Shown one piece after another: positions 11,056 to 59,259 of a DNA stretch of 59,259 nt. Origin of the DNA: a virus (Duplodnaviria > Caudoviricetes). The number at the start of each line of letters is the position of its first letter. Within the stretch, counting starts at the first letter, position 1. The stretch covers positions 1-59,259 of IMG/VR virus record IMGVR_UViG_3300048599_000301. One strand, given 5' to 3'. The notes under the pieces are model-generated. The model did no database searches. It was not told the DNA's origin and saw only the letters and a program-made list of their open reading frames with translations. The position numbers and the translations under genes were made by a program.

Positions 11056-11828
11056 GACGTCGTGCTCGCCTCGCAATCCATGTCGTCAATGACCCAGCAT
11101 CCGGCCTCCACATCCCAATACGCGTGCCCCTTCGTGCCGGTCTCGGCATCAGGCCACCAGTCAAATGAGTCGGTCGCGGCGAAGTCATTTCCGCTGTCGA
11201 CTGTCGCCTTCTTGGTCGTCGGGTCGACCTGCCACCAGCGGACGGAAACAGTGCCGCCCTTGCTGAAGGAGGTCGTCAGCTTGAAGAATCGCGGCGGTGG
11301 CAACTGGCCGAGCTGCACATAGGCCCACACGCTGCCCGTCCCCGATTCTTTCTTGATGATCCTCGCTGTACCACCGGAACCAGCCTTGAGGCCCGTGGCG
11401 TCGCCGGGGATCACCTCGGCGTACGTCGCGTTCTCGTCTTCGACGACGATCTTGACCGGACAGCCGCCGGCGATGCAGCCGCGGCCGATCTTCCCAGCCC
11501 GGATCGGCTCGAGAAGGACCGCGAACTTCCCGCGGTGGGCGGCGGCCGGGGTGACGCCGTGAATGATCTTCTCGCCGAACTTGAAGGCGCTCGTGTCACC
11601 AGGCTCTGGCCAAACGTCGGAGATTCCCAAGACTTCACCAGTAAAACGATCCTCGGAAGAATCGTTTTGGACTTCGACCGAGCCGGCGGCAGGGCCACCG
11701 GACAAAGAAAAATCCCCTGTCCGATTGCGAAGCTCGCGGATGAAAAGCAGCGCGTCGAGCATCTCGCTATAGACGGATGCCGGGATGCTCAGTCGCTGGC
11801 CTGGGAATGGCTTCTCAAAGTCGGTCAT
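11052..11828 (-). CDS. Putative tail protein
   Basis: Operon position; FAVLLEPIRAGKIGR motif. Confidence 0.55.
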   Translation of the reverse strand: MTDFEKPFPGQRLSIPASVYSEMLDALLFIRELRNRTGDFSLSGGPAAGSVEVQNDSSEDRFTGEVLGISDVWPEPGDTSAFKFGEKIIHGVTPAAAHRGKFAVLLEPIRAGKIGRGCIAGGCPVKIVVEDENATYAEVIPGDATGLKAGSGGTARIIKKESGTGSVWAYVQLGQLPPPRFFKLTTSFSKGGTVSVRWWQVDPTTKKATVDSGNDFAATDSFDWWPDAETGTKGHAYWDVEAGCWVIDDMDCEASTTS

Positions 11829-18964: not shown

Positions 18965-19054
18965 GTAACCAAAAACTCCATCCACTCCAAAGGGCCCGGG
19001 CGGCCGGCAGCTCGGCGGGGACTGCCAGCCGCTCGCGGGCCGGAGGAACCAAAC

Positions 19055-27353: not shown

Positions 27354-27722
27354 CTAGGAAGCTCTCTCCACACTCTTAAACGTCTTCCCGCACACGCGGC
27401 ACTTGTGCCAACGGATCGGCCGGCGAGAACTGGTAACAGGAACGTCCGTAGAGTGGCAATCCGGGCAGCGCACCGGAATGAACGGGACGCCCATGTCAGA
27501 CGGCCTGGACTCCTCGGGCGAGGAAGAACCCTCGACGAAATCGGCCGCCTCCGCTGGGATCTCCTTAAACGCAAACTCCCGGCGGCAGTGGTTGCACCGT
27601 GCCCTACCGCTGGCCCACCAAGTCGTGGACTCGGGATCAGGCCGCTTGAGGATCTCGGCATCCTGGCAGCCGCAACGGGGGCAGGCGGGGCCTGTGCAGC
27701 GTTCCAACCCGATCCAGGTCAT
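27354..27722 (-). CDS. Double zinc-finger protein; C-terminal finger Ogr/Delta-like (putative late activator)
   Basis: CPRCG...CNHC and CPDC...VTSSR...RWHKCRVCGKTFKSVE. Confidence 0.6.
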   Translation of the reverse strand: MTWIGLERCTGPACPRCGCQDAEILKRPDPESTTWWASGRARCNHCRREFAFKEIPAEAADFVEGSSSPEESRPSDMGVPFIPVRCPDCHSTDVPVTSSRRPIRWHKCRVCGKTFKSVERAS

Positions 27723-29863: not shown

Positions 29864-30246
29864 GCTTCGGGATCGGGTTCGGGCTCCGGATCTGGCTCCG
29901 GCTTCCGCTTGGCCAGGTCGGCCATCAACTTCACCGCACGCAAGGCCCCCTGGAAGTCGCCAATCTCGATCATCCGGCGGTAGAGGTCGCGAGTGGCCTC
30001 GAAACACCAGCCGTAAACGGCCGACGGGTCAAAATCGCCGGCCTCGCGAATCAGCTTGCCCACGGCCAGGATCAGGGGCTTCGGGTCGGCGTCGGGCCAG
30101 GCCTGATGGATCGCCTCGGTGATGTGGTGCTCGCTCGCCCCGGTCAGGACCCACGCGAGGACCTGGTGGACCTTGGCCGGGTCGGGCGGGGGCTTTCTAC
30201 ATCTCCTCTTGGAAGAACTTGCAGATGTCGTAAGGTTTGGCATCAA
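29860..30246 (-). CDS. Putative terminase small subunit
   Basis: Small helical ORF coupled to the large terminase; start uncertain. Confidence 0.5.
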   Translation of the reverse strand: MMPNLTTSASSSKRRCRKPPPDPAKVHQVLAWVLTGASEHHITEAIHQAWPDADPKPLILAVGKLIREAGDFDPSAVYGWCFEATRDLYRRMIEIGDFQGALRAVKLMADLAKRKPEPDPEPEPDPEA

Positions 30247-45058: not shown

Positions 45059-45586
45059 CTACGTCCCTCGTGATTCCTTTGCCTGCCTGTGGGCCAATCC
45101 CAATGCGGCGTGGACCATGTCCATCGGCGGATCCGACACATCAGGCCCGCCGCTGCGATACCACTCGGAAACCGCTTCCAGGGCGATCCGCATGGCCGGG
45201 GCCGCGGCCAAGGTCTGGCCGAAGCTCTCGCATTCGGCCGTGACTGAGGCAACCACCAGGCGGTGGCCGGCGTGCGTGTCGAGGATCGTGCCGGCGCTGA
45301 GACTTCCGGGAACGGTGGTAGGGTGAAACTCCAACATGACGCGGGCCATGTCTTCCATGCCCTTGGTGCTGGCTTCCGATCTGACGATGGTGATCCCCCT
45401 GGCAATCCCCGGCTCGATCCTGATGAACCCCTTGCGCTCCAGGGACTTCAGGTGCGACACGACGCCGTTGGGCGAGCGGATCCCGGCGTGGTCGCCGATC
45501 TCGCGAATGGTCGGCGCTCGGCCGGACTGGGCGACCTGCAGGCGGATGTACCCGAATATGGCGGCCTGTTTCGTTGTCAGTTCCAC
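45059..45586 (-). CDS. LexA DNA-binding domain fused to an unrelated C-terminus (no S24 peptidase)
   Basis: LTTKQAAIFGYI...PTIREIG...SPNGVVSHLKSLERKGFI...ARGI. Confidence 0.8.
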   Translation of the reverse strand: MELTTKQAAIFGYIRLQVAQSGRAPTIREIGDHAGIRSPNGVVSHLKSLERKGFIRIEPGIARGITIVRSEASTKGMEDMARVMLEFHPTTVPGSLSAGTILDTHAGHRLVVASVTAECESFGQTLAAAPAMRIALEAVSEWYRSGGPDVSDPPMDMVHAALGLAHRQAKESRGT

Positions 45587-45596: not shown

Positions 45597-45797
45597 TCAT
45601 TTCATCAGCAATTGATGCCGGTCATCCGCGAACAGGTTGGCCAGCACGATCTCCACGTCGCACGGCTCGATTTCCGTGGCCTCCGCGTCGGCCGCGAATC
45701 TTGGGACCTGCTCATTGAGCAGCCCGCGGAGTCGCTCGACCACTCGATCCCGCAAGGCCTCGGCGGCCTGCGTCCAGGGAGGCGTGTTGGTTTGCAT
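45597..45797 (-). CDS. Hypothetical protein
   Basis: Small ORF in the early operon. Confidence 0.5.
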   Translation of the reverse strand: MQTNTPPWTQAAEALRDRVVERLRGLLNEQVPRFAADAEATEIEPCDVEIVLANLFADDRHQLLMK

Positions 45798-46441: not shown

Positions 46442-46702
46442 ATGGCTTGGACTAAGTACACCCCCGACGATCTTGAGCAACTCGCCTCTGAGCTTGAGTT
46501 GCGAGCCAAGAGCCTGCGGGACGCGGCGGCGATCGTCCGGCAACGATCAGAGAATGGCGGTGGCGCCTTTGTCGAAATGAATCAGTCGCTTTCGAAGAGT
46601 TCTCCACTGACCAAGGGATTCGCCGCGATAATGGACTTCGCTGCGCAGGCCACGGCGAAGGCGGGAATGGCCCAAGTTCGTTGCATTGGGAAATCGGAGT
46701 AG
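46442..46702 (+). CDS. Small helical protein in the repressor position, paralogue of 560-826
   Basis: Divergent from the early operon, directly upstream of the integrase. Confidence 0.6.
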   Translation: MAWTKYTPDDLEQLASELELRAKSLRDAAAIVRQRSENGGGAFVEMNQSLSKSSPLTKGFAAIMDFAAQATAKAGMAQVRCIGKSE

Positions 46703-46707
46703 CCTCG

Positions 46708-47979
46708 ATGCAAGAGGGCAGAATCAGGGTCTACGTCTACGAGGAATCTGGGCGGCGGTACTATCGGATGAAGTACCAAGATCCAGTTTCCGGGGAGTGG
46801 AGCCGGAGGTCGACGGAGGTACCGGTAAACGAGGGACGCAGAAAGGACGCCGATCGTGCTGGAGCGGTCTGGGAGGCGGAACTGAATGCGGGGCTATACA
46901 CACCGCCGTCCCAGGTTTCGTGGGAAGAATTCCGCGACCGGTATGAGGCGGAGGTCTTGCCAGGCGTCGAGCCGAAGACGCGAACGTGTTACCGTACGGC
47001 ATTGAACGCGTTCGAACGCGTGATCGGGAAGCCGCCACGACTGGCCGTTGTGAACGGCAGTGTTATGAGTCGGTTTTGCTCGGAGTTGAGAAAACCGCGG
47101 CCAGCCAAGCCGCCGGAGGAGAAGCAGAAAGGCAGAGGCCGGCGACCGAAAGAGCAGGTGACCGAAGCGACCATCGCCAGTTATCTCCGCGGTCTCCGCG
47201 CGGCATTTCGTTGGGCTTCAGATACGGGTTTGATGCCGAAAATGCCGAAGTTCCCCCGGCTTCGTGCCAGCCGGTCTGGTGCAGCGCGAATGAAGGGGCG
47301 TCCGCTGACTCGGGAAGAGTTCGAGCGAATGCTCAAAGTAGTCTCGAAGGTTGTAGGGAAAGAGGCCGCCCCGTTGTGGCGGACGTTCTTGCGTGGGCTG
47401 TGGTGGTCCGGGCTGCGTCTCGACGAGGCCTTGCATCTGTATTGGGCTCCCACGCCATCCGACGAAAAGGCCATCGCGATTTGCAGTGACGGCGCGTATC
47501 CTATGCTCTGGATTCCTCCGAAGGGTCAGAAGAACCGCCAAGAGCAGTTACTTCCGGTTGCTCCGGAGTTCTGGAGGTTCCTTGAAAAACGATGGCCTGA
47601 AGATCAGCGGGAAGGTCGCGTTTTTCGCCTGACAAGCAAAATGGGCAACTCGGTTCGTGATTTGCGGGTCGTCTCAAAAACGATCTCACAGATCGGAGAA
47701 CGAGCAAGCGTTGTCGTTGATGCCCATAAGGGGAAATTCGCCAGCGCTCACGATCTGAGACGTTCCTTCGGGCTGCGCTGGGCGACGCGTGTCCTTCCCC
47801 AGGTTCTTCAGGGGATGATGCGACACAAGGACATTGCCACTACAATGACGTACTACGTTGGGAGTCTGGCCGAGACTACAGCGGCTGGTATCTGGTCTGC
47901 ATGGAAGCGAGAAAGGCGGAAAAGCAGTGGGACCAGAAGTGGGACAAAGGCGGGCTCTGAAACGGAAAAACACGAATGA
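46708..47979 (+). CDS. int: Tyrosine recombinase (phage integrase)
   Basis: GLRLDE (R), HDLRRSF (HxxR), MRH, TTMTYY; adjacent to attR. Confidence 0.93.
   Translation: MQEGRIRVYVYEESGRRYYRMKYQDPVSGEWSRRSTEVPVNEGRRKDADRAGAVWEAELNAGLYTPPSQVSWEEFRDRYEAEVLPGVEPKTRTCYRTALNAFERVIGKPPRLAVVNGSVMSRFCSELRKPRPAKPPEEKQKGRGRRPKEQVTEATIASYLRGLRAAFRWASDTGLMPKMPKFPRLRASRSGAARMKGRPLTREEFERMLKVVSKVVGKEAAPLWRTFLRGLWWSGLRLDEALHLYWAPTPSDEKAIAICSDGAYPMLWIPPKGQKNRQEQLLPVAPEFWRFLEKRWPEDQREGRVFRLTSKMGNSVRDLRVVSKTISQIGERASVVVDAHKGKFASAHDLRRSFGLRWATRVLPQVLQGMMRHKDIATTMTYYVGSLAETTAAGIWSAWKRERRKSSGTRSGTKAGSETEKHE
47926..47945 (+). promoter_or_regulatory. Putative integrase arm-type site, right
   Basis: AGTGGGACCAGAAGTGGGAC matches 184-203. 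Confidence 0.7.
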
Positions 47980-48054: not shown

Positions 48055-48137
48055 CTCTGGATCAGTTAGTCAAGGTTCAAATCCTTGTTCCCCAGCTCCT
48101 GAAAGCCTTTCCTGACAACGAGTTAGGAAAGGCTTTT
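48055..48137 (+). repeat. attR core (duplicated tRNA-Gln 3' half and terminator)
   Basis: 83-bp identity to 85-167. Confidence 0.95.
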
Positions 48138-48567
48138 CTTATGCCCTGATGGTAGGGGGGGTGCTCAGCGCTATGCCGGCGCTAGGGCTGGCTAGCGACA
48201 GTGCCCCCTAGTGTCCTTCTGCAACATTGCGTCACCAGTGAAAAGAGGACCACCCGCAATCCTCCGTACCCTGGTGGGGTGTCCAGTGAGAACCCCACCG
48301 GTCGCTGGGCGTCAGTAGTCCGCATAAGCGTTTGCGGCTGCGTTACTTATGGATGGCTTAGCCTAGTGGCTACTTCCGTCTATTGACGGACGCAGGGATA
48401 TTCCTTATCAATGCAGTTGGCGAATCGCGAACCAGGCGGTTTCATTTCGATTCCCCTGGTAGTAGACTGGATTTAGGTGGGACGCAAGTCTCGCGTGGGC
48501 CGATAAGTGATGATGGTTTCGCCACGGATATCGGGTGAGATCGCGTCTTAAGAAAAGGGTTTGGGAT

Positions 48568-49038
48568 ATGTGTAACCTCCTCGAACTGGCGCAGAGCAAA
48601 GCCCGCGTTTACCGCGATGAGGTTGAGCTGTGGAAGACCGATCACGAACAGGCCATGCTGTTTTTTGCCTTCGAAGACGTAGTTGCGGACGGCATTCGAG
48701 TCTTTGAGCTGGTCAACCGGCTTGACGAAACCATTCGCACTCGCCTATATCAGAACGATCGCGAGTGTGGCGCGGAATCGCTTGCCGCGATCGACACGAT
48801 CTATGATTTGTTGCGCAGGGCCTGCGGCGCGATTGAAGACGTGCTGCCGAGTGTTGAAGCTGACTTTGGGGCCGTTCGGAACGCCGAGAAATTCCGCAGT
48901 GTCTGCCACGAGTTGCGATGCATGCAAATTCCCGATGAAGAGTTCTTTGCCGACGATGCCCTAGTGCAACTTCGCGATGAAGCGATAGACCAGTACCGAG
49001 GGGGCGAAACTCGTGAGCTCTGCGGGAACGACGGGTAA
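48568..49038 (+). CDS. Putative antitoxin
   Basis: Acidic ORF overlapping the downstream toxin; ends DEAIDQYRGGETREL. Confidence 0.6.
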   Translation: MCNLLELAQSKARVYRDEVELWKTDHEQAMLFFAFEDVVADGIRVFELVNRLDETIRTRLYQNDRECGAESLAAIDTIYDLLRRACGAIEDVLPSVEADFGAVRNAEKFRSVCHELRCMQIPDEEFFADDALVQLRDEAIDQYRGGETRELCGNDG

Positions 49039-49324
49039 CAGTAATCGCCGCGCCCCTGGCTTCAATGCCATGTTCGACAAGCTGCCGGAGCCTGTGCAGA
49101 CGGCCGCCAAGGCCGCTTTCGATCTATTCTGTCGAGATCCAAGCAACCCAGCACTGGAGCGGCACTTCCTGAAGGACACCAAGAAGGGGCGGCATAAGAT
49201 TGGAAGCGTTGCGGTTTCTGTGACCCGTCGTTACCGCGCAATCTACGTAGAGGACGGCGGGGTTAACATTTGGTACTGGATCGGCTCGCACGAAGCCTAC
49301 AACAACTACACAGGCAAGATCTGA
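49013..49324 (+). CDS. RelE/ParE-superfamily toxin
   Basis: FDKLPEPVQ...DPSNPAL...YRAIY...WYWIGSHEAYN. Confidence 0.82.
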   Translation: MSSAGTTGNSNRRAPGFNAMFDKLPEPVQTAAKAAFDLFCRDPSNPALERHFLKDTKKGRHKIGSVAVSVTRRYRAIYVEDGGVNIWYWIGSHEAYNNYTGKI

Positions 49325-49380
49325 TTTGCCTACGCCTCCCTGCCAGTGTCTAGTGAGAAGCCGCTCGCCTAAATGCGGTC

Positions 49381-49623
49381 TTACCTCGCCTCCCTCCGCC
49401 TCATCGCCCGATGGCTTCTCCCTGTCGCCTCCCGCATTCTGATGGGGCCGACCCTGAAGGTCTTCCTCGCCCACCGTCGAATCGTCGTCTCTTCCGTGGC
49501 CGGACCATGTAGCATCTCCTCGCCATACCAGTCCACCAAGATTCGGACTACGGTTCTGTCGAACTCCGTAACTTCGTCCGTATCCGCCGTTGGCTGCTGC
49601 TCTTGAGGTTCAGGCTTGGTCAT
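49381..49623 (-). CDS. Hypothetical protein
   Basis: Short ORF with a plausible RBS. Confidence 0.45.
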   Translation of the reverse strand: MTKPEPQEQQPTADTDEVTEFDRTVVRILVDWYGEEMLHGPATEETTIRRWARKTFRVGPIRMREATGRSHRAMRRREAR

Positions 49624-49742
49624 GGAACGCCTTCAAATAATAAACCCCGCCCACTCGCCGCTGCATGCGGCGTGCCGCCCATGAACGAAAAGCCCCGCCC
49701 CAGCATCGCCCGGGGCGGGGCCACTGTCAACCGTTTGCCTTC

Positions 49743-50228
49743 CTACGGCAGCCGAACGGCCGCCGCCTCGTCTGGGGTTGCGTAGGTCATCTGAATCATC
49801 GACCTAGCGACCAGCAGCAGCCGCTCGCTGTGCTCCTGCCCATACGGGGCTTGCTGTTGGCATAGTTCCATGAGCATGTCGTAGGTCTCGTGGTCGATGC
49901 CGCCGGCTGACCGCAGCTTCTTCGTATAAGCCTCGGTACTGAGTGTGGCCGGGTCTTGCCTGCCGGTGATGATCTGAAAGTGGATTCGAAGGACCATCTC
50001 CAAGACCGACATGAGCAGGATGCGCACATCCTGATACCGGCCCGCGCGATGGAGGTTTGCCGCTGTGCCAACGAGTGCAGCGTAGCAGGTCCGGACGTCC
50101 CGGTCCGTCAGAAGTGCCTCGACCTGCTGGCGGATGCGATTCTTGCGGGCCTCCTTCTGAACGGTCGTCATCTTCGGTTGCCGGTTGCTTGTGACGACGT
50201 TGTTCTCGACGTATGCGGTGGTGATCAT
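49743..50228 (-). CDS. Hypothetical protein
   Basis: GGAGGT RBS; coupled to the upstream ORF. Confidence 0.6.
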   Translation of the reverse strand: MITTAYVENNVVTSNRQPKMTTVQKEARKNRIRQQVEALLTDRDVRTCYAALVGTAANLHRAGRYQDVRILLMSVLEMVLRIHFQIITGRQDPATLSTEAYTKKLRSAGGIDHETYDMLMELCQQQAPYGQEHSERLLLVARSMIQMTYATPDEAAAVRLP

Positions 50229-51295
50229 GCGACACCTCCCACCACGGCCGTGGGTTCGTCGGCTTCTTCCTCTTCCTCAACCTCCGTGTCTTCGTCCGGC
50301 TCCTCGTCGTCACCGGGCCGCGCCAAGCCGTTGGCCGCCGCCTTGCGGAACTTGCGGGCAGTCTCCTCCAGGTCGGTTGCCAGGGCCAGCAGGATGCCTT
50401 CCAGGTCAATCCGGTCGTCGATCGCGGGCACGTACCACGGGCCGGCCACGTCAAACTCCAGATCGAACGTCTGGGTTCGCTCGTCCATTTCGCCGCCCAC
50501 GAACTTGTCGAAGCCGTTGGCCCGAAGGATCTGGGTCAGCGTCTGCCGCTTGGCGGGCCGCTTCGGGTCACAGTGACCCGCGGCGTGTCCGTTGGTCCGT
50601 TCAATTGGCTCACAGTGATCCGATTTTCGAGCCACCGGGCCGCTCTCCTCGTCGTCGTTCTCCGCGGGCTCGCTGGGCGGGTTTTGTTGCCCACGGGCAA
50701 CATTCTCCGCCGCCTCCTGCGCTCGATAGTCGACCAGATGGGCCAGCCCGTCGCGGACCTCATCGGCGGTCGGTAAGACTAGCACCATAGGCAACTGCTG
50801 GCATCGCTCGATGATGCCCCGGTCGCCCTCGAAAACGAACGTGTCGGTCGATTCCTCCGGGATCGGATCGCCGCTTTGAGTGACAACCCACCAAACGCGA
50901 TCCTCGGCCCACGAAAGCAAGCTGTTGGTCTGGTCGTTCAGCTCAACCATCCGGCGGAACGCGCTCTGCCGGGAATCGTGGCTACGGCGGTCGGTCTGCC
51001 ATGAGCCGAGCCAGCCGAACATGGGCACGCTCAACTCATGCTGGGGTTCCCAGCCTTCGGGCACCCTAAGCGGGATGGTGTGGAACTTGTGCTCCGGGTT
51101 GTCGGGATCGACCGTTCCGAGCACTTCGGTCCCCTGGGTGTCGATCGTCGCCGCCGCAACGAGCGTTGCCGGGTCGACGGTCGGGTCGTCGGGTTCGTAG
51201 CCGTCGAAGGCATCCCGGATGGCTTGGCGAATTGCGGCCTGACGGGAGACGTAGAGCGAACCGTTAGAACGAAACAGAGAGACTTGGGTAGCCAT
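50225..51295 (-). CDS. Acidic hypothetical protein
   Basis: AAGGAG RBS before MATQVSLF. Confidence 0.6.
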   Translation of the reverse strand: MATQVSLFRSNGSLYVSRQAAIRQAIRDAFDGYEPDDPTVDPATLVAAATIDTQGTEVLGTVDPDNPEHKFHTIPLRVPEGWEPQHELSVPMFGWLGSWQTDRRSHDSRQSAFRRMVELNDQTNSLLSWAEDRVWWVVTQSGDPIPEESTDTFVFEGDRGIIERCQQLPMVLVLPTADEVRDGLAHLVDYRAQEAAENVARGQQNPPSEPAENDDEESGPVARKSDHCEPIERTNGHAAGHCDPKRPAKRQTLTQILRANGFDKFVGGEMDERTQTFDLEFDVAGPWYVPAIDDRIDLEGILLALATDLEETARKFRKAAANGLARPGDDEEPDEDTEVEEEEEADEPTAVVGGVA

Positions 51296-51764
51296 GACTG
51301 GCTCCTTTCGCTGGCAGATTGCCAGCAAAGAAGACAGTGAGCCCACGTGCTCGGTTGATAAGCGGATCGACCGCCGACCGTGCGTTGCTCCCCCGCCGCT
51401 GCGGGTTCATCGCTTCAACACGGCCCCAAGTACGTGGGCTCACTGTCTGACGCATGGGTGTCCTTTCGATCGGGTTATCAAGCCCGGATGGCGGTTGCCA
51501 TCGCCCGTGATTATCGCTGATGCCTCCGGGAAAGTCAACTACCTCTGTTGGAGGGGTGGAATGATGATCTGGGCTGTGATGTCAGTGATGGACCGGCCGA
51601 TGGCCCAAAAATGACCTCCTGGCTTGCGTTTCCTCGTCACCGGATGAAGTTTTCGAAGGACGGGCCGGAAGACGAACCGAGCCGCCAGCGGGGCTCCTGG
51701 GCGATTCTAGAGGGTGTCGGGAAAAATCTTATCCAGCTTGCCAATTGTGATGTATGTTTGTCTA

Positions 51765-51836
51765 GCTGCCCAGGTCTTCAACCTTCCTGAGGCAGCACGG
51801 CCGCTGATTCCCTCTCAGCGGCCGTTTTTTATGCGC
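51765..51836 (+). ncRNA. Two-hairpin antisense sRNA, copy 2
   Basis: GCTGCC...GGCAGC stem, ACGGCCGCTGA/TCAGCGGCCGT stem, T6-ATGCGC tail; -10-like TATGTT at 51753-51758. Confidence 0.72.
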
Positions 51837-51906
51837 TGCATCGTCGGCGATCAAGTGGCCAAAATGACCACTTGAAAACAGCGTCGCCCCGGTGGTATCC
51901 TGATCG

Positions 51907-51979
51907 TGCTGCCTCACCCGCAAAGCTGAGGTAGCGCGGCCGCGTCGGGCTGCCCTCCGGCGCGGCCGATTTTGTGCGC
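51907..51979 (+). ncRNA. Two-hairpin antisense sRNA, copy 3 (complementary to start region of prophage gene 1131)
   Basis: Same scaffold; promoter TTGAAA-18-TATCCT (51872-51901); 51943-51958 pairs 15/16 with 1118-1133. Confidence 0.78.
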
Positions 51980-52031
51980 CCCCATGGCGCCGCCCCTTGC
52001 TTCCAGCCCGCCCCGGCGCTATGCTGGTGAG

Positions 52032-52112
52032 CGCTGTCTCGACCCATACAGACAAGCTGAGGCAGCGCGGCCGCGATGGAACCCCACCCTCCACGCGGCC
52101 GATTCTTTGCGC
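52032..52112 (+). ncRNA. Two-hairpin antisense sRNA, copy 4
   Basis: Same scaffold; promoter TTGCTT-17-TATGCT (51997-52025). Confidence 0.75.
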
Positions 52113-52203
52113 TGGCCGTCGGGCAGCCCACCTATTGCTCCGCGCCCACGCCGGCTTTAGACTGGCGGGCATCGATGGTGTGCTAACGAAAGGGGTGGTG
52201 ATC

Positions 52204-52548
52204 ATGGGCATGGTGGTTCTGTGGTGTGCGCTGTCCGCGATCGGTGGCCTGATTGCGCTGGTGGTCAACGGTCGCGTGCTGGCCGGGCTCGTGCTTGGGT
52301 TACTGCTCGGGCCGATCGGCTGGCTACTGGTCTTCTTTCTGTCCGACCTCCGCCAGCGTTGCCCGTCATGCAAGGGCGTGGTGGCGTCCGATGCGACCGC
52401 CTGCATGCACTGTGGAGCGAGCCTTATCACGCGACCGCTTCCTCAGTCCAGCGAGACGTTCTGTCAGAAATGCGGCGTCGATGGCATGTCGACGATGGAA
52501 TTCGGCCGGCGCGTGATGCGTTGCCCGAAGTGTGGAGCCAAGCTGTAG
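52204..52548 (+). CDS. Membrane protein with double zinc ribbons
   Basis: GLVLGLLLGPIGWLLV TM; CPSC..CMHC and CQKC..CPKC; promoter TTGCTC-17-TAGACT upstream. Confidence 0.75.
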   Translation: MGMVVLWCALSAIGGLIALVVNGRVLAGLVLGLLLGPIGWLLVFFLSDLRQRCPSCKGVVASDATACMHCGASLITRPLPQSSETFCQKCGVDGMSTMEFGRRVMRCPKCGAKL

Positions 52549-52611
52549 TCTCTTGGCGCGTTTCGTTGTTGTGGTGGTAATGCCGGGGATGGCAAGGAAA
52601 GGGGTAGATGG

Positions 52612-53388
52612 ATGGGGACCAGGCATCCAGTTCGTCTGCCAAGCAATTGGCGATTCTCCGCAAAGACCGGGCTGCTAGTGGGGATCGTCTTTGCTCCTGT
52701 ACTGGTCGCTATCGTGGCTATGGTCCGATACGAGATGTCTCGAGACACATGGATTCTCGATAATTGGGGTGAAATCACGGCTAGGCTCGAAGAAGCCGAT
52801 CGTATCGCGGAGTCGAATGAAGAGCAAGCATGCGCAGTCATTGAGGTGATTCTTGAGGATGCGTCTCGCCATCCTTCCGATTTCGAGCCGGCCAAAACAA
52901 GGCTGGAGGAATCGCGGAAGAAACTTCGCAAACTGCAATCCATCATTCGACGGAAGGAAGCTGATCGCGAACGGGAGTATCTCGCGGCGTTAGAACGAAA
53001 GCGTGCTCGCGATGAGGCTGATTGGAAACGCCAGCAGGAAGAGTCGCGGCGACTTGCCGCCACGAGGCGAGCAGAGGACGAGAAACGCGAAGCAGCGGAG
53101 GCCAGCAAGGTGCTGTCTTATCCGCTGGCAGTTGGGGAACGCGGCCGGCTCGAACGCCCCGTTCGAATCATCCAAGTCTTGCGGCACAATCAGGCGCTCG
53201 CGGAGATAATGTGGAACAGTTCATCTTCAACAACCGTGCTCTTGTATGACATACCGACTACGAACTGGGTCGATGGTGACGAGTACACCCTGGCGGGCCG
53301 GTGGTGTGTCGGCCCGCCATCGCAATACATAACGGTGCTGGGGGCGAAACGTACAGTCACGTCGTTTTTCCTGATGTCAAGCCAGTAG
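52612..53388 (+). CDS. Single-TM coiled-coil protein
   Basis: GLLVGIVFAPVLVAIVAMV; charged coiled coil; C-terminal beta domain (YITVLGAKRTV). Confidence 0.65.
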   Translation: MGTRHPVRLPSNWRFSAKTGLLVGIVFAPVLVAIVAMVRYEMSRDTWILDNWGEITARLEEADRIAESNEEQACAVIEVILEDASRHPSDFEPAKTRLEESRKKLRKLQSIIRRKEADREREYLAALERKRARDEADWKRQQEESRRLAATRRAEDEKREAAEASKVLSYPLAVGERGRLERPVRIIQVLRHNQALAEIMWNSSSSTTVLLYDIPTTNWVDGDEYTLAGRWCVGPPSQYITVLGAKRTVTSFFLMSSQ

Positions 53389-53393
53389 CCCGC

Positions 53394-55265
53394 CTACCCC
53401 GCCGTCTGGTTGACGGGGCTCCCCGGAGCGACGCCCCAGGGCAACGCCAACTCCGCCACGGGCCCCAGCGATCCGTCGGCACCGATCAAGGCCACGGCCA
53501 CATACTCCGCTGCCGTCTGCTTATGGAACGTCTCAAACGAGGTCCGCACCTTGGATGCCGTGACCAGCTCCGTCGGAGTCGTGAACGTCGCCACCGGTGA
53601 TGTGGCCGAATACCAGACGCCAAAGGAAAGACCCCAGACCGAAATCGGATGCGCGATGCCCCAGGTGATCGTAGCGACGCCCCGCTTGATCGTCGAAGCC
53701 AGGTTGACGACGCCGGGAAGCGGGTCGGCGATCGGCGGCCCATCGTCGCGGAACGTGTAGATTCTAGTCGCACTACGTCGGGCCCCGGCGAACAGTGTGC
53801 TGTCGTGCGTGGTCCACATCTCGTAGGTGCCCGGGGCGATGGCAACGCCGGTCAACGTCTTCTGGGCCGCATCTCCCTCGATCGTCCCTAGGACGGTCAC
53901 GGCGCCGGTCTCGACATTCCGCGCGTAAATCGTCGTCCGGTCGGCATAGATGGCAATGGTGCGGCACAGCGAGACCTTGGAGTGGTTGGCTCGTGCGTCG
54001 AATCTCGCCAGGGATATCTTGCGTTTCTGTGCCCGCGCGTCAACGCGGCTCAGCGAAACTTTCCTGTGCGTCGTCCGCACCTCTTCGACGGCATCCACGC
54101 GACACAGCGATATCTTGCTATGTGGCCGGCGGTCCAGATCCTGGGCCATGAGCCGCATTTGAGCGGACGCCGGCAGTTGGGCGGTCTTTGCTGACGCAAT
54201 GCCTGTCTGTGCGATGAGCCGCATGGAGGCCGACGGCAGACGCGGCACGCCCTGCACATACACCTCAACCGAGTCAGTGGCGTCCTCACACTCGCCGGGA
54301 GCGGTAATCGTGTAGGTAGTCGTCTCGGTGGGGCTGACGGTGGTGGAGCCGCTAGGTGGGACTGCGCCGACACCGTTGTCGATGGAGGCGGATGCCGCGT
54401 CGCTCCAAGACCAGGTGAGCGTGACGCTGCCGCCCTCGAGGATGCCCATAGGCTCGGCGGAAATGGAGGCGTGAGGCTCAAGCGGCGGAGGCAGCGTAAA
54501 CGCCTGCGTCGTGCTTCCGTTGGTGTTCGTGGCCGTGAATTCGATCTGCTCGGCCCCGGTGATGCCGGTTACCGTGGCCGTGAATGAACATGCCGTCGTG
54601 TCGGGGCTATTCGGAGTGCCGCCGCTGATCGGGTTGCCTTCGCTGTCCAGGAGCCGATAGGACCACGAGTCTGCGCGACTGATGCCGACACTGGCGCTAT
54701 GGGTGAGCGGAGTGCAGCCAGTGACGCTAAGGGTGGGCGTACCGAACCACGGCGGACTGGATTCCACCAGCACCTGGACACTGCTTGTCCCAGACTCATA
54801 GGTTCCTCCACCGCAATACTCGGCGGTCCAACTCACATACCCCGTCGTAGCGCTCGAGCCAGCGTAGATAGGGACATCGACCTCCGACGGGAATGAGGTC
54901 AGCGCCGGAATGAGGGTCATTGATTCCCATGCTGGACACGTCACGTACCCATTGAAATACGGATGACCGTAGCCGTCATAGCAGTCCGGGCACGGGCCGT
55001 TAACTCGGACGCGAACCGACCCCTCGACGCGCACGCCCTCGGGCGGACGAAACACCTTGTCGCCGCAACGGTAGGTAACGGAGAGAACTTCAACGAGTGG
55101 CATGTTAGGATTCCTTTCCTGTTTGGTTTGCGCGGCCGCCTTGAGCCTGTCCAATCCGCTCCGGCCGCTGGCCATTGGCCTCTGAAGCACGACCGACAGC
55201 AGGACCGCCGCCAGTGCGGTGATCGCGATGAACAGCGACACCACCCACAGAACTGCGCGCCCCAT
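53394..55265 (-). CDS. Homologue of prophage tail adhesin 4714-7545 with an in-frame N-terminal TM extension (second start at 55103)
   Basis: MPLVEVLSVTYRCG...TCPAWESMT...TSFPSEV and IYARN...APGTYE...AEL.LPW...SP.NQTA shared; DUF2341/LamG block absent. Confidence 0.85.
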   Translation of the reverse strand: MGRAVLWVVSLFIAITALAAVLLSVVLQRPMASGRSGLDRLKAAAQTKQERNPNMPLVEVLSVTYRCGDKVFRPPEGVRVEGSVRVRVNGPCPDCYDGYGHPYFNGYVTCPAWESMTLIPALTSFPSEVDVPIYAGSSATTGYVSWTAEYCGGGTYESGTSSVQVLVESSPPWFGTPTLSVTGCTPLTHSASVGISRADSWSYRLLDSEGNPISGGTPNSPDTTACSFTATVTGITGAEQIEFTATNTNGSTTQAFTLPPPLEPHASISAEPMGILEGGSVTLTWSWSDAASASIDNGVGAVPPSGSTTVSPTETTTYTITAPGECEDATDSVEVYVQGVPRLPSASMRLIAQTGIASAKTAQLPASAQMRLMAQDLDRRPHSKISLCRVDAVEEVRTTHRKVSLSRVDARAQKRKISLARFDARANHSKVSLCRTIAIYADRTTIYARNVETGAVTVLGTIEGDAAQKTLTGVAIAPGTYEMWTTHDSTLFAGARRSATRIYTFRDDGPPIADPLPGVVNLASTIKRGVATITWGIAHPISVWGLSFGVWYSATSPVATFTTPTELVTASKVRTSFETFHKQTAAEYVAVALIGADGSLGPVAELALPWGVAPGSPVNQTAG

Positions 55266-55376
55266 GATTCCGCCCTCCAGGAATGCGAGTGTTTACCCTA
55301 ACCACCTGCATCCTAAGCCTCTCAAATGAGCGCGCAATACCTCTAGCGGGTGGCGCGATAAGATGACTGGTTGTGG

Positions 55377-55712
55377 TCATTTGCTCTTCTCCTGCATCGC
55401 CGGATGGCAGGCGAACACGCGGAACGGGAGGTATCGCGCGAGTGCGTCCATATCGGGCTTGGTCGCATCGACAACGATCGACGCTGCCCCCAGGCTCAGC
55501 GCGTCGCGTAGCACGCTTTCCACGGCCAGCGCCGTCGGGAGGATCAGGGGAGCCAACTTCCTGCCAGCCCGCTCGATGAACTCGCGGACGCCTGCCTCAT
55601 CGGTCCAGATAGCCAGGTGCCATTTGCCATCGCCATCGGTGAAACCGACAAGACCGTCGGTCGTCAGGTCCAGCGCCGCGAAGAGCGGGAAGTCCCATGC
55701 AAAGTCACTCAT
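55377..55712 (-). CDS. Hypothetical protein
   Basis: GGAG RBS before MSDFAWD. Confidence 0.55.
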   Translation of the reverse strand: MSDFAWDFPLFAALDLTTDGLVGFTDGDGKWHLAIWTDEAGVREFIERAGRKLAPLILPTALAVESVLRDALSLGAASIVVDATKPDMDALARYLPFRVFACHPAMQEKSK

Positions 55713-55859
55713 TGCTGTCTCCGCCTGCCATGGTCTCGATCCTTCAAGAGTTGTTGTGTTGGGAAATGGGGCCCGGCCGGCATGGCTCAACACCGACCGG
55801 GCCCGCGCCGGCCGCATGGTTTGGAGTCCGGAAACCATGCGGCACGGCGCACCGCGGGT

Positions 55860-56609
55860 TTACGCTTCCAGCCGCTTGGCTTGGATCGTTTGCAACTGAG
55901 TCTCAAGCTCGCGTTTGCGGGGCTCAAGCTCTTTAATCTTGGCGTCGGCCCGCTCGGCCGCCTGCTGGTAGTGACGGGCCACGTCGGCTTGGTCGCCGCC
56001 CTTCAAAATGTCGTGCATGGGAGGGAGCCCCAGCACAGGGTGAACGTCGTCATACTGCCAAGCCTTGGGCCGCTTGGTCGGGTCGGTATGATACCGCTCG
56101 CGTTCCCGGCACGCTTCTGCGTAACGACGCAGTTGGTTCAAGATCGTGCTGACGGATTGCAGCCCCCGGCCTAGCTCGCGCTCCTGGTCCTTCAGGTATT
56201 GCGGCGCGGAGTCGATCAGCTCGCGGGCGGCGAACGCGCATTCCGCCGACTTGTCCTCAAGCTGGAGTAGCTCGGCCTCCATCGGCGCCATGACGTCGTT
56301 GTAGTGGGCTTCGGCCTTTGCATCCCAGTCCGCCTTTTCGCGCTGAAGGCGTTCTGCCAATTCGGCCTTCCGCTTGGTGATCGCTGGCCCCTTGGCTGCC
56401 ATCTCGGCCAGTTGACGCCGCCGGAGAATGGCCTTCACGTCTGCTTGGAGGTCTTCGGCCTTCTTGCCGGCCGCGTGCAAGACCGACTCGGTTTGCACAA
56501 CGTCGATGGGCTTGCCGTCGGCGTAGGCTCGGACTAGTGCGGGGTAATCCGCAGCTTTGGTTTTCTGGCGACTGACAAGCGCCGCCAATGCATCGAGGAC
56601 AGTACTCAT
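55860..56609 (-). CDS. Coiled-coil hypothetical protein
   Basis: AAGGAG RBS; heptads. Confidence 0.6.
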   Translation of the reverse strand: MSTVLDALAALVSRQKTKAADYPALVRAYADGKPIDVVQTESVLHAAGKKAEDLQADVKAILRRRQLAEMAAKGPAITKRKAELAERLQREKADWDAKAEAHYNDVMAPMEAELLQLEDKSAECAFAARELIDSAPQYLKDQERELGRGLQSVSTILNQLRRYAEACRERERYHTDPTKRPKAWQYDDVHPVLGLPPMHDILKGGDQADVARHYQQAAERADAKIKELEPRKRELETQLQTIQAKRLEA

Positions 56610-57406
56610 TACTCGGACTCCTTCGGAAAAATGGAAAGCGCGGCCGTTGCCGCTGCTAACTGAAGATCATTCGGGTTGGTGATGCGCGACGCCCAATTCA
56701 GCACGTCGACACGCCACAAAGCCGTGAAGCCTTTGGGCGGGGGCGTCGCCTTAATGGTGGCGAAGGTCTCGCCGCCCATCGCCTCAGCTTCGTCGCGGAG
56801 CGCGGCGAAGTATTCACGGCCGGGTGACAGCTCGTAACGCGAGCCGGCCGCCACGTCACCAAGCCACACGTCGACGCCCAGCCGATTGGCGCGGCAGACG
56901 AGATGGGCGGCCGCGCGGATAAAGCGCGCATCGTGCTCCAAGAGGGTAAGTAGGTTGATGGCGGACACCTCGGACTCATCCAATTCACGCAACGCCGCAG
57001 AAACGGCCTTGCGTCGCGATCTGGGCGTCAAGTTTTTTCGCGGCTCTCCGTAGGGTGCCGGCGCGGCCACGATGTGCGCCAGCTCATGCGTAAACGTCGC
57101 TACAGCATGTCTGCGGAAGTGCCGCTCTTGCGCCGGTCTGAACCAACGCTCTAGTCGAGTTACTTCACGCATGGCTCGCAGATCCAGCGCGATGCACGCG
57201 CCACGCCCCCGCCATCCCGCGATGCGGTCCTGATAGGTCATGTCTAACAGGCGGTCGACCAGGCCAAAGCAGCCGGGCAGCCGCGTGTCGACCGCATAGA
57301 CCGGCATGCTCGCCCACTCGGGCACCAGGGCATGGGCGAAGGGCTCAAACCAGGCGAGCAAGTCGGGCACAGCGATCGGATCAAAGGGGTTGGCGAGGGT
57401 GGGCAT
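56609..57406 (-). CDS. HExxH zinc metallopeptidase-like protein (SprT-like pattern)
   Basis: TFTHELAHIV and downstream HDARF. Confidence 0.6.
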   Translation of the reverse strand: MPTLANPFDPIAVPDLLAWFEPFAHALVPEWASMPVYAVDTRLPGCFGLVDRLLDMTYQDRIAGWRGRGACIALDLRAMREVTRLERWFRPAQERHFRRHAVATFTHELAHIVAAPAPYGEPRKNLTPRSRRKAVSAALRELDESEVSAINLLTLLEHDARFIRAAAHLVCRANRLGVDVWLGDVAAGSRYELSPGREYFAALRDEAEAMGGETFATIKATPPPKGFTALWRVDVLNWASRITNPNDLQLAAATAALSIFPKESE

Positions 57407-57421
57407 CGTGGAGGCTCCTGG

Positions 57422-57712
57422 TCAGTCAAAGGCGAGGATGTCGGGAACGGCGTTGACGGTGTTCGCGCCCGCCGCGTCGACGTCAGGCTCGGCGTCCCCA
57501 CGCAACACAAGGTTGGTGATCCGGCGTCTGGCGACGTTGAAAGCTTCCTCGGTCACCATGGCGGGATTGCCGCTCGTGCAGGCCAGCCGGTCGGCTTCGT
57601 ACAGCAATGAGGTCAGTAGGTCGCTCCGGCCTTTACGGTTGGCCTCAAGGGCCTTCTCGGCGGTGACGGTGAGGTCGGGACAGACGGCGGTCAGTTCTTC
57701 CCATGTGGTCAT
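57422..57712 (-). CDS. Hypothetical protein
   Basis: AAGGAG RBS before MTTWEEL. Confidence 0.55.
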   Translation of the reverse strand: MTTWEELTAVCPDLTVTAEKALEANRKGRSDLLTSLLYEADRLACTSGNPAMVTEEAFNVARRRITNLVLRGDAEPDVDAAGANTVNAVPDILAFD

Positions 57713-57725
57713 TGATTGGACTCCT

Positions 57726-58493
57726 TTAGGTGGTAGTGGTTTGGGGCTTGTAGTTCCACGGCGTGACAGCCATGCTGCCGGGGGAGCACGAAAACGGAAC
57801 GAATCCGATCTCACTCGGATTGTGCGGCTTCTCGGTCCGCAGTTGGTCGCGCGCCGCCGCCTCGGCCTCGTCATACAGTCGCTTGGCTTCGTCGTCGGGC
57901 CCAGGTAGGTCGTCGGGCGGGGTGGGTTCAGGCTGCTGGGCCGCCATCAGGCCATCAAGGGTGACCGCATAGTAGACGCGGCCGTGAACGTCGGACGTGG
58001 CTTCGATCCAGCCGGCCACGATCGCCGGGACCGCAAAGTCCGCGACCCTCGCCAGTTGACGCCGGGCCCCTTTGGCGCGGTAGCCTTCCAGGCCGGCAAC
58101 CAGCAGCTCGGAGACCCACACGCCTGTAACTCCTCCCGCGTACTCCAGGACTGACAGCACGCTCGACCAGCCGTCGCTGTCGTCGGGCATGCGGGCTAGG
58201 GCCGTGGCCAGCCATCGGCCGCGGTGAGTGAGCCGGCAGTGGCTTCGGCGCGGTTGGCCGAACGCTTCAATCAGCCCCTGCTCGACCAAGCCGCTCAGGA
58301 ACCGCTCCGAGGTCTTCCGCTCGGCGTCAGCGCCGCCAGCGGTCCAGCGGACGCCCTTGTCGCGGAACTCTCGGCGATGTTCATAGATCACGGTCGGGGC
58401 GGTGGCCGTGGTCCAGTCCTCGGACCGGAGCGGATGCCAGAGGGCGCGTTCCGACGCCAACAGATGCACAAGGGTTTTTTCGGTGTGGTTCAT
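57726..58493 (-). CDS. Hypothetical protein with two winged-helix-like segments
   Basis: LVEQGLIE...CRLTHRG and IVAGWIE...YAVTLDG. Confidence 0.5.
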   Translation of the reverse strand: MNHTEKTLVHLLASERALWHPLRSEDWTTATAPTVIYEHRREFRDKGVRWTAGGADAERKTSERFLSGLVEQGLIEAFGQPRRSHCRLTHRGRWLATALARMPDDSDGWSSVLSVLEYAGGVTGVWVSELLVAGLEGYRAKGARRQLARVADFAVPAIVAGWIEATSDVHGRVYYAVTLDGLMAAQQPEPTPPDDLPGPDDEAKRLYDEAEAAARDQLRTEKPHNPSEIGFVPFSCSPGSMAVTPWNYKPQTTTT

Positions 58494-58571
58494 TATGTTA
58501 TGTCATGTCCTGATGTCACAAATGAGGTCAGTCCCATATCCGAGCTGGTCCGCCCGCACGACAAAAAGCGC

Positions 58572-59084
58572 CTACCCGGCGTAGGACCCCGAATAGGGGG
58601 TATACCCCTCTGCCTGGGTCCTAGCTTGGTTTGGCGTCTGCGACAGGCCGCCCGAGACCAGACCGGAAACGGGTAGTCCTTCCTTCCTGCCATGCCCCCT
58701 CGGGCTGGTGCTCGCCTCGCTAACTAACTGTGTCGCCAATTGCTGCGGTTCCGGGCAACCGAACGCGGTGATTCGTGCCGGGAGGACCCGACCACCCGTG
58801 CAGGTGGAGGCCGCGTCATCGGCTTCCCACCCGTCGGTCGGCGGCCTCCACTCGCCGCTGCCGGTCAGGCAGGTTCGTTGCAAGTGCCCTCGCGCCACTC
58901 GGTAGGCCTCACGGGTCCGCAGCCGGCCACTCGACAACGGGCCGACCATCATGGTCAATCGCCCAACGATCTGCATCCACGCCTCGGGCTCGCTGTGGTA
59001 GTAGGCGTGCCGGGCATCCTCGGCCAGTTGGATCAGGCCGCGCTCAATGCGGGCCATTGCGTGCCATGTCATTTGCTTGCTCAT
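58572..59084 (-). CDS. Hypothetical protein
   Basis: AAAGGA RBS before MSKQMTW; 3' end uncertain. Confidence 0.45.
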   Translation of the reverse strand: MSKQMTWHAMARIERGLIQLAEDARHAYYHSEPEAWMQIVGRLTMMVGPLSSGRLRTREAYRVARGHLQRTCLTGSGEWRPPTDGWEADDAASTCTGGRVLPARITAFGCPEPQQLATQLVSEASTSPRGHGRKEGLPVSGLVSGGLSQTPNQARTQAEGYTPYSGSYAG

Positions 59085-59165
59085 GAGAATCCTTTCTTCG
59101 TGGTTGTGACGGTGACCGCGAGCACCGGGACAATTCTTCTTGAGGTTTGCACCGGGACCCGCCGG

Positions 59166-59221
59166 ACCAGCAGTGGGACAGGACAGGGGCCTATATATAG
59201 GCCCCCTGTCCCACTGCTGGT
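59166..59221. repeat. Origin-like nested palindrome
   Basis: 17-bp perfect arms ACCAGCAGTGGGACAGG/CCTGTCCCACTGCTGGT around GGGGCCTATATATAGGCCCC. Confidence 0.8.
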
Positions 59222-59259
59222 GGTCACCGGTGGGACAGCCCTGTTCCACTGCTTTTGTC

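Follow-up and report, generated by a model that had tools for sequence, protein, structure and literature searches.

A two-hairpin RNA unit of a phage-derived element and its complementarity to the start region of a gene in the neighbouring prophage

The locus

The virus record IMGVR_UViG_3300048599_000301 (59,259 bp, 62% G + C; in the following, the window denotes this whole stretch of DNA) contains a prophage of about 48 kb enclosed by two copies of an 83-bp repeat (85-167 = 48055-48137), and beyond the right-hand copy, attR, a second element of which 11 kb are visible and which extends past the end of the window. Four copies of a two-hairpin RNA unit, c1 to c4, are found in these two elements: c1 is the prophage copy and follows gene 1131, and c2 to c4 form a tandem array beyond attR with a spacing of 125-143 nt from start to start. 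The present analysis concerns the third copy, c3, and its complementarity to the start region of gene 1131, comprising the Shine-Dalgarno (SD) sequence and the start codon. The features at the centre of the analysis are as follows.

1131-2036, + strand: gene 1131, 301 aa, with an N-terminal hydrophobic membrane anchor, an SHD1 domain (E 6e-16) and a DUF3862/BLIP-like C-terminal domain (Pfam, PHROGs)
1118-1133, + strand: proposed target, from the SD sequence GGAGGG (1118-1123) through the AUG (1131-1133) of gene 1131
1132-1148, + strand: site on the mRNA complementary to loop 1 of c1, in codons 1-6 of gene 1131
2053-2125, + strand: c1, 86.3 bits with the covariance model R1, two-hairpin fold, starting 17 nt past the stop codon of gene 1131
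51764-51836, + strand: c2, 79.6 bits with R1, fold z -6.72, terminator-like site, first unit of the tandem array
51907-51979, + strand: c3, 73.9 bits with R1, predicted small RNA of 73 bases, terminator-like site
51943-51958, + strand: extended anti-SD segment of c3, GCUGCCCUCC in the upper stem and loop of the terminator
52032-52112, + strand: c4, 76.7 bits with R1, predicted fold, apex ACCCCACCCUCC, last of the three array units and 92 nt before gene 52204
52117-52132, + strand: remnant resembling the terminator apex of c3 (14/16 identical; direct repeat D5), in the leader of gene 52204

A family of four structured units

The core motif of the units occurs four times in the window against 0.48 occurrences expected, and none of 100 shuffles reaches four. 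With R1, a model built from the four copies themselves, these score 73.9-86.3 bits and the next best locus of the window 16.5 bits. This locus, 45725-45797, was considered as a fifth copy and rejected, as it lies inside an open reading frame (ORF) on the minus strand. The model hit of the third copy coincides exactly with the unit that a first-pass annotation of the window had delimited at 51907-51979. When the whole window was compared with Rfam 15, only the tRNA passed its gathering score.

Every copy folds as a 5' hairpin followed by a GC-rich hairpin and a T-rich tail, with energies of -30 to -44 kcal/mol and z scores of -2.2 to -6.7. In c3, the 5' hairpin is formed by 51908-51916 and 51927-51935 around a loop at 51917-51926 (loop 1, CCCGCAAAGC), and the terminator hairpin by 13 pairs between 51937-51949 and 51956-51968 around the loop CUGCCC (51950-51955), with the tail AUUUUGUGCGC behind it; the fold has an energy of -44.4 kcal/mol (z -3.29) for 51905-51979 and of -42.7 kcal/mol for 51907-51979. 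Stem segments are nearly invariant across the copies (15-16 of 17 and 7 of 7 positions identical, and 6-8 of 9 in the 5' arm of hairpin 1), and the loops are variable, with 3-8 identical of 12-20 positions. The terminator loops read CUGCC (c1), AUUCCCU (c2), CUGCCC (c3) and ACCCCACCC (c4), and the corresponding apices, CUGCC/UCC, AUUCCCU, CUGCCC/UCC and ACCCCACCC/UCC, are all C-rich, with the CCUCC lying partly inside the stem in c1, c3 and c4.

The copies are mosaics, in that one tail is common to c1 and c2 (the c2 tail UUUUUUAUGCGC is identical to that of c1) and another to c3 and c4, and loop motifs are common to c1 and c3, namely CGCAAAGC in loop 1, as had been noticed before, and CUGCC..UCC in the apex. 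In the tails of c3 and c4 the U-tracts are broken up (AUUUUGUG and AUUCUUUG, respectively), in contrast to the UUUUUU of c1 and c2. By eye, the apex of c1 (2098-2104 vs 2076-2082) and of c3 (51949-51957 vs 51928-51935) repeats the CUGCCUC of the 5' arm of hairpin 1; the apex could hence pair with the 3' arm of hairpin 1 in an alternative or pseudoknotted fold; such a repetition is not seen in c2 or c4.

As the stems are conserved as nucleotides and not just as pairs, and as each terminator arm contains the palindrome CGGCCG, the units might also be taken for DNA-level repeats without any RNA function, i.e., REP-like palindromes or protein-binding sites on CGGCCG/GCGGCCGC. However, all four copies have the same orientation relative to the flanking genes, are terminator-like and carry the T-tract on one strand only, and there are only four copies in 59 kb, all of them in accessory regions. 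In addition, the exact core pattern was found once per locus in 82 genome loci, which argues against a high-copy repeat in a represented genome. An explanation at the DNA level is accordingly regarded as highly improbable.

Gene 1131

The C-terminal domain of the gene 1131 product matches lipoproteins of Bacillus and Paenibacillus phages. A homologue, P0001, is encoded on a metagenome contig of 2743 bp; it is 72% identical, also 301 aa long and identical in 55 of the first 60 residues, and this N-terminal identity supports the ATG at 1131 as the start codon. The gene call of the record at 1131-2036 is a 186-aa truncation that starts far downstream, the correct form being the long one that begins at ATG 1131. 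On a plain reading of its domains, the product would be an envelope-associated accessory protein. Such a membrane-anchored SHD1 and DUF3862/BLIP-like protein of 301 aa with a phage-lipoprotein-like C-terminus lends no support to the toxin or exclusion gene, held in check by a borrowed antitoxin RNA, that the first-pass annotation had offered as an example, and a type I toxin, which would be a small hydrophobic protein of about 60 aa or less, was rejected on the same grounds. The earlier statement that the second element holds no copy of the target gene within the window is borne out by a tblastx comparison of 48138-59259, in which no homologue of gene 1131 was found.

In the leader of gene 1131, the sequence CAGATTCTTC stands twice as a direct repeat of 10 nt, at 1076-1085 and 1102-1111, and resembles the tail of c4 (a score reached by 42 of 1000 shuffles); these repeats may be decayed remnants of a unit. 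Homology of the leader as such to the units was rejected, the respective scores being reached by 609, 157, 848 and 42 of 1000 shuffles for c1 to c4.

Transcription signals

Three promoter-like sites bear on the question of which of these units are transcribed on their own.

1034-1062, + strand: promoter-like site of gene 1131, TTGCAA-17-TATCGT; less than 9/12 consensus positions and not listed by the consensus scan
51872-51901, + strand: promoter-like site of c3, TTGAAA-18-TATCCT with TG, sigma-70-like, 9/12 consensus positions, ending 5 nt before the RNA
51997-52025, + strand: promoter-like site of c4, TTGCTT-17-TATGCT; read by eye, from the alignment and by pattern match, and not listed by the consensus scan

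The spacer of the gene 1131 promoter is common to the c3 and c4 promoters, as revealed by alignment and pattern matches, and in an unbiased window-wide scan each of the two promoter regions, that of gene 1131 and that of c3, has the other as its best local match (score 29, next 23-24, background 11.4 +/- 2.5). For c2 there is a weak candidate promoter only, seen by eye. For c1, the promoter scan found no promoter-like site of its own on the + strand, and since it starts 17 nt past the stop codon of gene 1131, the 1131-2036 transcript probably has c1 as its 3' end. By its own promoter-like site and terminator, c3 is predicted to be a free-standing small-RNA gene, the transcription of which we infer from these signals. 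As it combines a promoter of the 1131 type with hairpins like those of c1, c3 looks like a 1131 cassette without the leader and the coding sequence (CDS); judged from the sequences, gene 1131 could equally be a coding insert in a c3-like unit. An operator-like palindrome of 25 bp (51851-51875; two arms of 11 nt around a centre of 3 nt) reaches into the -35 hexamer of c3 and has no second copy in the window.

The same signals can be read in another way, namely that the units are cis elements bounding accessory cassettes and not trans regulators, c1 both terminating and stabilising the 1131 mRNA, and c2 to c4 being empty or decayed cassettes whose leaky terminators constitute the leader of gene 52204, possibly as an attenuator. 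This would account for the use of one promoter type for the protein gene 1131 and for c3 and c4, for c1 as a terminator of gene 1131 lacking a promoter, and for the interrupted U-tracts in the c3 and c4 tails; moreover, no promoter-like site is found between c4 and ATG 52204, the leader of 52204 holds a unit remnant, and CAGATTCTTC stands twice in the 1131 leader with its likeness to the c4 tail. The invariant stems without covariation point in the same direction, and the c4 apex can pair with the SD sequence of 52204 (hybrid -13.0, net -7.5 kcal/mol, rank 4 of the 76 start regions defined below when accessibility is considered). However, a plain terminator needs neither a conserved upstream hairpin nor hypervariable C-rich loops, three tandem units of which at least two have promoter-like sites would mainly give rise to short RNAs, and the complementarity of both loops of c1 to the start region of its own gene (1/500 and 16/500 shuffles, see below) would be left unexplained. 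A function solely in cis is thus held to be unlikely, and the pairing that would underlie a control of gene 1131 by the units has to be looked at more closely.

Complementarity to the start region of gene 1131

The segment 51943-51958 of c3 (CGUCGGGCUGCCCUCC) pairs with 1118-1133 (GGAGGGCAGCUAGAUG) at 15 of 16 positions across the SD sequence and the AUG, exactly as described in the first-pass annotation, by 13 Watson-Crick pairs, two G-U pairs and one A/G mismatch. The order is 10 contiguous Watson-Crick pairs (GGAGGGCAGC), G-U, the A/G mismatch, G-C, A-U, G-U and G-C, and the isolated 16-mer duplex has an energy of -27.4 kcal/mol. When accessibility is taken into account, the best interaction of c3 is that of 51947-51958 with 1117-1129, with a net energy of -11.6 kcal/mol (hybrid -24.0, opening 7.5 for the small RNA and 4.9 for the mRNA).

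For a comparison with other possible targets, 76 candidate start regions were used, 55 from a rough codon-usage gene finder and 21 manual alternatives. For the c3 apex, gene 1131 ranks first among these both by duplex energy (-30.3 kcal/mol, next -25.6) and by net energy (-11.6, next -9.2, median -1.8, sd 2.64), and the exact complement of 10 nt, which reaches four bases past the SD hexamer, is the longest of any pair of c3 and a start region (next 8). At this site, none of 500 mononucleotide shuffles of the c3 apex and two of 2000 shuffles keeping CCCTCC were as good.

The prophage copy points to the same gene by a different loop. Loop 1 of c1 pairs with 1132-1148 at a hybrid energy of -22.2 and a net energy of -12.3 kcal/mol, rank 1 of 76 (the net values for c1 being -12.3 and -10.3), a match equalled there by one of 500 shuffles; the c1 and c4 apices are equalled at gene 1131 by 16 and 5 of 500 shuffles, respectively. 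The segments GGAGGGCAGC and UUUGCGAAGG of the 1131 start region would be the counterparts of an apex or of loop 1. Read from 5' to 3', the mRNA presents the apex site before the loop-1 site, an order that agrees with colinear, antiparallel pairing, and in a scan for such colinear double sites the 1117 site comes first of 1618 scored sites for c1. The link between c3 and gene 1131 is stronger than the first-pass annotation had recognised, the promoters being reciprocal best matches and the top target of c1 also being gene 1131, by way of loop 1.

Other matches of the loops were found as well. The best start region for the c2 apex (51805-51817) is that of the fibre gene 55265 of its own element (about 55266-55280, - strand; -17.2 kcal/mol), with 43 of 500 shuffles as good on some start region, and for the c4 apex it is that of gene 1131 by duplex energy alone, with 52204 on rank 4 as given above; the proposal that copies 2 and 4 address genes of other helpers finds no support in these in-window targets. 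The start region of gene 55265, GGAGGGCGGAAUCAUGGGG, resembles that of gene 1131. In c1, the segment 2059-2070 (+ strand) is an exact 12-nt complement of 11065-11076 (- strand), which contains an SD sequence and lies 10-21 nt upstream of ATG 11055. The gene starting there overlaps its upstream neighbour by ATGA, belongs to the tail module of the prophage and is a second candidate target of c1.

The two elements

The surroundings of the units were annotated as follows, first for the prophage and then for the second element.

55-126: tRNA-Gln gene, found by RNA family search
85-167, + strand: attL, 83-bp exact direct repeat spanning the 3' part of the tRNA-Gln gene and a hairpin downstream of the tRNA
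2320-3765, + strand: PD-Lambda-5 A (E 1e-125)
3809-4708, + strand: PD-Lambda-5 B, D12-class adenine methyltransferase (E 8e-112)
4714-7674, - strand: tail-fibre-like protein (Pfam) with an extra Laminin_G_3 insert
12648-15707, - strand: tail tape-measure-like protein
20096-22297, - strand: capsid
22287-23825, - strand: portal
27719-30007, - strand: terminase
45059-45586, - strand: LexA-type repressor
46681-47979, + strand: integrase
48055-48137, + strand: attR, second copy of the 83-bp repeat, adjoining the integrase gene and marking the boundary between the prophage and the second element
49013-49324, + strand: ORF with a ParE-like toxin domain, in the second element
52204-52548, + strand: gene 52204, 114 aa, double zinc ribbon (Pfam Zn_ribbon_3/DZR), N-terminal part hydrophobic as read from the translation
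53394-55265, - strand: tail-fibre-like paralogue of 623 aa, identified by tblastx/blastn and by alignment with 4714-7674

Between attL and the fibre gene, the prophage carries accessory genes which all lie on the + strand, gene 1131 being followed by the PD-Lambda-5 anti-phage defence pair (2320-4708), which comes directly after c1. A strong hairpin at 2138-2180 (AGCCCTTGTTGC...GCAACAAGGGCT) lies between c1 and the PD-Lambda-5 genes and may be a second, bidirectional terminator. In the second element, the ParE-like ORF overlaps the end of an upstream ORF of 156-167 aa, and the two, at 48535-49324 (+ strand), may form a type II toxin-antitoxin pair close to the attR end of that element.

The two fibre-like proteins are 45% identical over the alignment, in which the N-terminal ~330 and the C-terminal ~200 residues match up, and one stretch of their DNA is 72% identical over 347 nt; a Laminin_G_3 domain and additional repeats are found in the prophage protein only. 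Both elements have the same order and orientation of an att site, + strand accessory genes with RNA units, and a minus-strand fibre gene. The common gene order and the fibre paralogue suggest that the neighbour, be it a prophage or a remnant, is of phage origin, related to the first element and integrated head to tail with it. By contrast, the first-pass annotation had thought of a satellite, and in the visible 11 kb (48138-59259) neither an integrase nor capsid, replication or capsid-redirecting/helper-hijacking genes were found with Pfam, PHROGs, NCBIfam and PADLOC. By the gene content of its visible part, the second element is phage-derived and related to the prophage, and not recognisably a satellite.

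Relatives of these elements are scarce in the collections searched. The array had no blastn match among the INPHARED phages, and among viral contigs no relatives were found of the gene 1131 product, the 50225-51346 protein, PD-Lambda-5 A and the fibre alignment; the promoter pattern gave two loci there, neither of them with a unit. In 401 Planctomycetota genomes, there were only two partial domain matches to the gene 1131 product and one match of 29 nt to the DNA of the second element, and homologues of the fibre C-terminal domain were present in eight of them. By sequence similarity, the only detected relatives of the phage lineage are in Planctomycetota genomes, and from the fibre-domain homologues, which were searched for in Planctomycetota only, this phylum may loosely be taken as the host group. 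A full-text search of the literature on small RNAs of Planctomycetes gave nothing comparable.

Possible repression of gene 1131 by the units

Three independent links connect the units with gene 1131, namely the adjacency of c1, the promoter likeness of c3, and the colinear complementarity of c1 loop 1 and the c3 apex, which together make pure coincidence unlikely, and support for the pairing of c3 with gene 1131 as more than a chance match is moderate. A tentative reading, which we regard as possible rather than probable, is that two of the units repress the translation of gene 1131 through RNA, c3 acting in trans and c1 either in cis or as an RNA derived from the 3' end. The four-member family would occupy the accessory ('moron') regions at the ends of two kindred elements of phage origin that lie head to tail at a tRNA-Gln gene, and the 1131 mRNA would be under negative RNA control at its ribosome-binding site. 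Loop 1 of c1 would pair with positions +2 to +18 of gene 1131, either intramolecularly or as a 3'-derived RNA, and the terminator apex of c3 would pair in trans with the SD sequence, reaching to two bases short of the AUG. The outcome would be less translation of the membrane-anchored SHD1/BLIP-like protein, with whatever benefit this might bring, and the reach of c3 across the element boundary would stem from the common descent of the two cassettes.

That the c3 unit and the 1131-c1 cassette derive from one ancestor is a simpler explanation for the complementarity than the acquisition of a regulator by a satellite. It might be taken one step further by assuming that related prophages lying side by side communicate by RNA, in that a cassette without its CDS became c3 and silences the intact 1131 cassette of the neighbour, but this extension seems rather unlikely. 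Of the original proposal of a small RNA aimed at a gene of the neighbouring prophage, what stands is the phage-derived second element, the promoter and terminator of c3, and gene 1131 as the best predicted target in the window, whereas repression as such is a prediction.

A considerable number of results weigh against repression. Within the structure of c3, the terminator stem takes up 10 of the 16 seed bases (51943-51949 and 51956-51958), leaving only CUGCCC in the loop, and across the four copies none of the 16 pairs shows compensatory changes. The ranking rests on rough gene models, and the c3 apex finds some equally good start region in 34 of 500 mononucleotide and 51 of 1000 CCCTCC-keeping shuffles (5-7%), as does loop 1 of c1 in 41 of 500; for the apices of c1 and c4 these numbers are as high as 257 and 112 of 500. 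Loop 1 of c3 is at chance level at gene 1131 (rank 16/76, 133/500 shuffles as good, and 41/500 on any start region), so that of the contact proposed earlier between this loop and UUUGCG at 1137-1142 the sequences are present but their pairing is not distinguished from chance. Furthermore, the c1 and c4 apices likewise have the 1131 start region on rank 1 by duplex energy, owing to its strong SD sequence (GGGGAGGG), and part of the signal is therefore SD strength.

The site is not unique either. In 174 kb, comprising the window and Planctomycetota loci, the 1118 site ranks fifth of 562 GGAGG sites (mean -20.4, sd 3.8); it is thus only within the top 1%, its specificity is moderate, and a whole host genome would offer several equal sites. 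Two sites of the window outside start regions score slightly better in a scan of all positions (-31.2 and -31.0), and in the two-site scan for c3 the 1117 site (-42.2) is behind a site near 18995-19000 (-43.1). Cofolding with a 61-nt fragment of the start region yields a gain of 13.3 kcal/mol for c1, and the gain of c3 (6.4) is not outstanding when compared to those of c2 (6.6) and c4 (5.1). In the minimum-energy fold of 1071-2125, the start region pairs with 1430-1497 and not with c1, which is weak evidence since long-range fold predictions are unreliable.

Finally, no relatives of the RNA were found that could have provided comparative support. The core pattern had no match in viral contigs, R1 none over 151 Planctomycetota genomes, and over the 82 genome-contig loci scored with R1 the best values were 31.7 and 26.7 bits, with no convincing member in the alignments inspected and with 15 bits at most for the three Planctomycetota loci. 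A stricter two-hairpin pattern gave two loci in metagenome contigs (23.2 and 19.7 bits), and at eight loci flanking fibre-domain homologues there was no unit (at most 15.7 bits).

Many of these observations would be accommodated by assuming that the units are real small RNAs with generic anti-SD apices, that the match to gene 1131 is a relic of ancestry combined with the affinity of C-rich loops for SD sequences, and that c3 acts on other mRNAs of the host or of the second element, or on none. Gene 1131 would then be expected to rank first for three of the four apices, as it does, the 1118 site to be merely one of the top 1% of GGAGG sites, and the shuffle rates on any start region to lie at the 5-7% seen. 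Loop 1 of c3 at chance and a cofolding gain of c3 that equals that of c2 fit in as well, and so do the alternative matches, i.e., the 12-nt complement of c1 at 11065-11076 (- strand) and the pairing of the c3 apex at -24.0 kcal/mol with the start region of the fibre gene 55265 of its own element. In addition, the two-site match is split, with the loop-1 half in c1 and the apex half in c3, as expected from drift after a common ancestor. On the other hand, the test at gene 1131, the site specified beforehand, is strong (0/500 and 2/2000), the 10 contiguous Watson-Crick pairs extend four bases past the SD hexamer, and the common promoter suggests co-expression of gene 1131 and c3. Such a reading, with the match as a relic, is considered somewhat unlikely.

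If c3 does repress gene 1131, this would be a second example, after SviR (see below), of one viral element regulating another that resides with it by means of RNA, the two being related prophages in this case. Moreover, it would offer an unusually legible route for the birth of a trans-acting small RNA, by loss of the CDS from a self-regulating mRNA with the promoter and hairpins kept the same, and a first candidate family of small RNAs in phages whose host group has been little studied. Without such repression, the locus would still be a clear case of accessory cassettes assembled from reusable promoter and terminator parts, and SD-directed complementarity alone would prove to be weak evidence in GC-rich genomes.

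Comparison with known systems

With respect to toxin-antitoxin systems, a complementarity to the start region as in type I systems is present here, though with moderate specificity and without any overlap in antisense. Type III systems (ToxIN-like) consist of tandem, nearly identical repeats of about 35-45 nt and a ToxN/AbiQ-type endoribonuclease, whereas the units described here have promoter-like sites and terminators and the downstream gene codes for a zinc-ribbon protein. Type III systems, integron attC sites, put/nut-like antitermination RNAs and retron RNA were all rejected on architecture. Among the Rfam families, the best match of the array region (51500-52300) is RF00519, the alpha-proteobacterial small RNA suhB/MmgR, to which c2 aligns over the full length of the model; with 18.6 bits (E 0.34) against a gathering score of 41, the match is weak and c2 is not a member.

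The c4 antisense RNA of phages P1 and P7 and the CI RNA of P4 are phage RNAs of about 70-80 nt that bind through their loops to two short stretches of a phage transcript around its ribosome-binding site, and differences in these loops set the specificity between related phages. The units described here differ in that they lie 3' of, or away from, the putative target and not upstream of it in the same operon and have no known link to immunity, and the Rfam C4 family has no match in the window.

For the cross-element aspect the nearest system is SviR, a small RNA of the satellite PLE of Vibrio cholerae, which lowers the translation of targets of the helper phage ICP1 (bioRxiv 10.1101/2022.04.08.487710). 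As predicted here, a small RNA on one mobile element is directed against genes of a co-resident viral element. However, SviR is experimentally established and acts for a satellite against a lytic helper, whereas no satellite hallmark is seen here, a fibre paralogue is present, and regulator and target are apparently of common ancestry.

In Staphylococcus aureus, a C-rich anti-SD motif in the 3'-UTR of icaR pairs with the SD sequence of its own mRNA and blocks initiation (PMC3868564). Similarly, loop 1 and the apex of c1 at the 3' end are complementary to 1117-1148 of the same mRNA. In contrast to icaR, c1 begins 17 nt after the stop codon and is itself a terminator module and not a long 3'-UTR, it has a free-standing paralogue in c3, its strongest contact is with codons 1-6 and not with the SD sequence, and the intramolecular pairing is absent from the minimum-energy fold.

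The copies of the LhrC small RNAs of Listeria monocytogenes lie in tandem. In this multicopy family (LhrC1-5), C-rich motifs of loop A and of the terminator loop bind the SD region of a target mRNA (PMC4132741). The units described here likewise comprise several (four) paralogous copies of a short RNA that consists of a 5' hairpin and a terminator hairpin, with C-rich motifs in their loops, including the terminator loop, and a predicted pairing with an SD sequence. Compared with LhrC, they have no sequence relationship and strongly differing loops, they are phage-borne and come from a high-GC genome, and their anti-SD motif is partly in the stem. By analogy, multicopy C-rich small RNAs of the LhrC type are nearest to the units in working principle, followed by the pairing of icaR.

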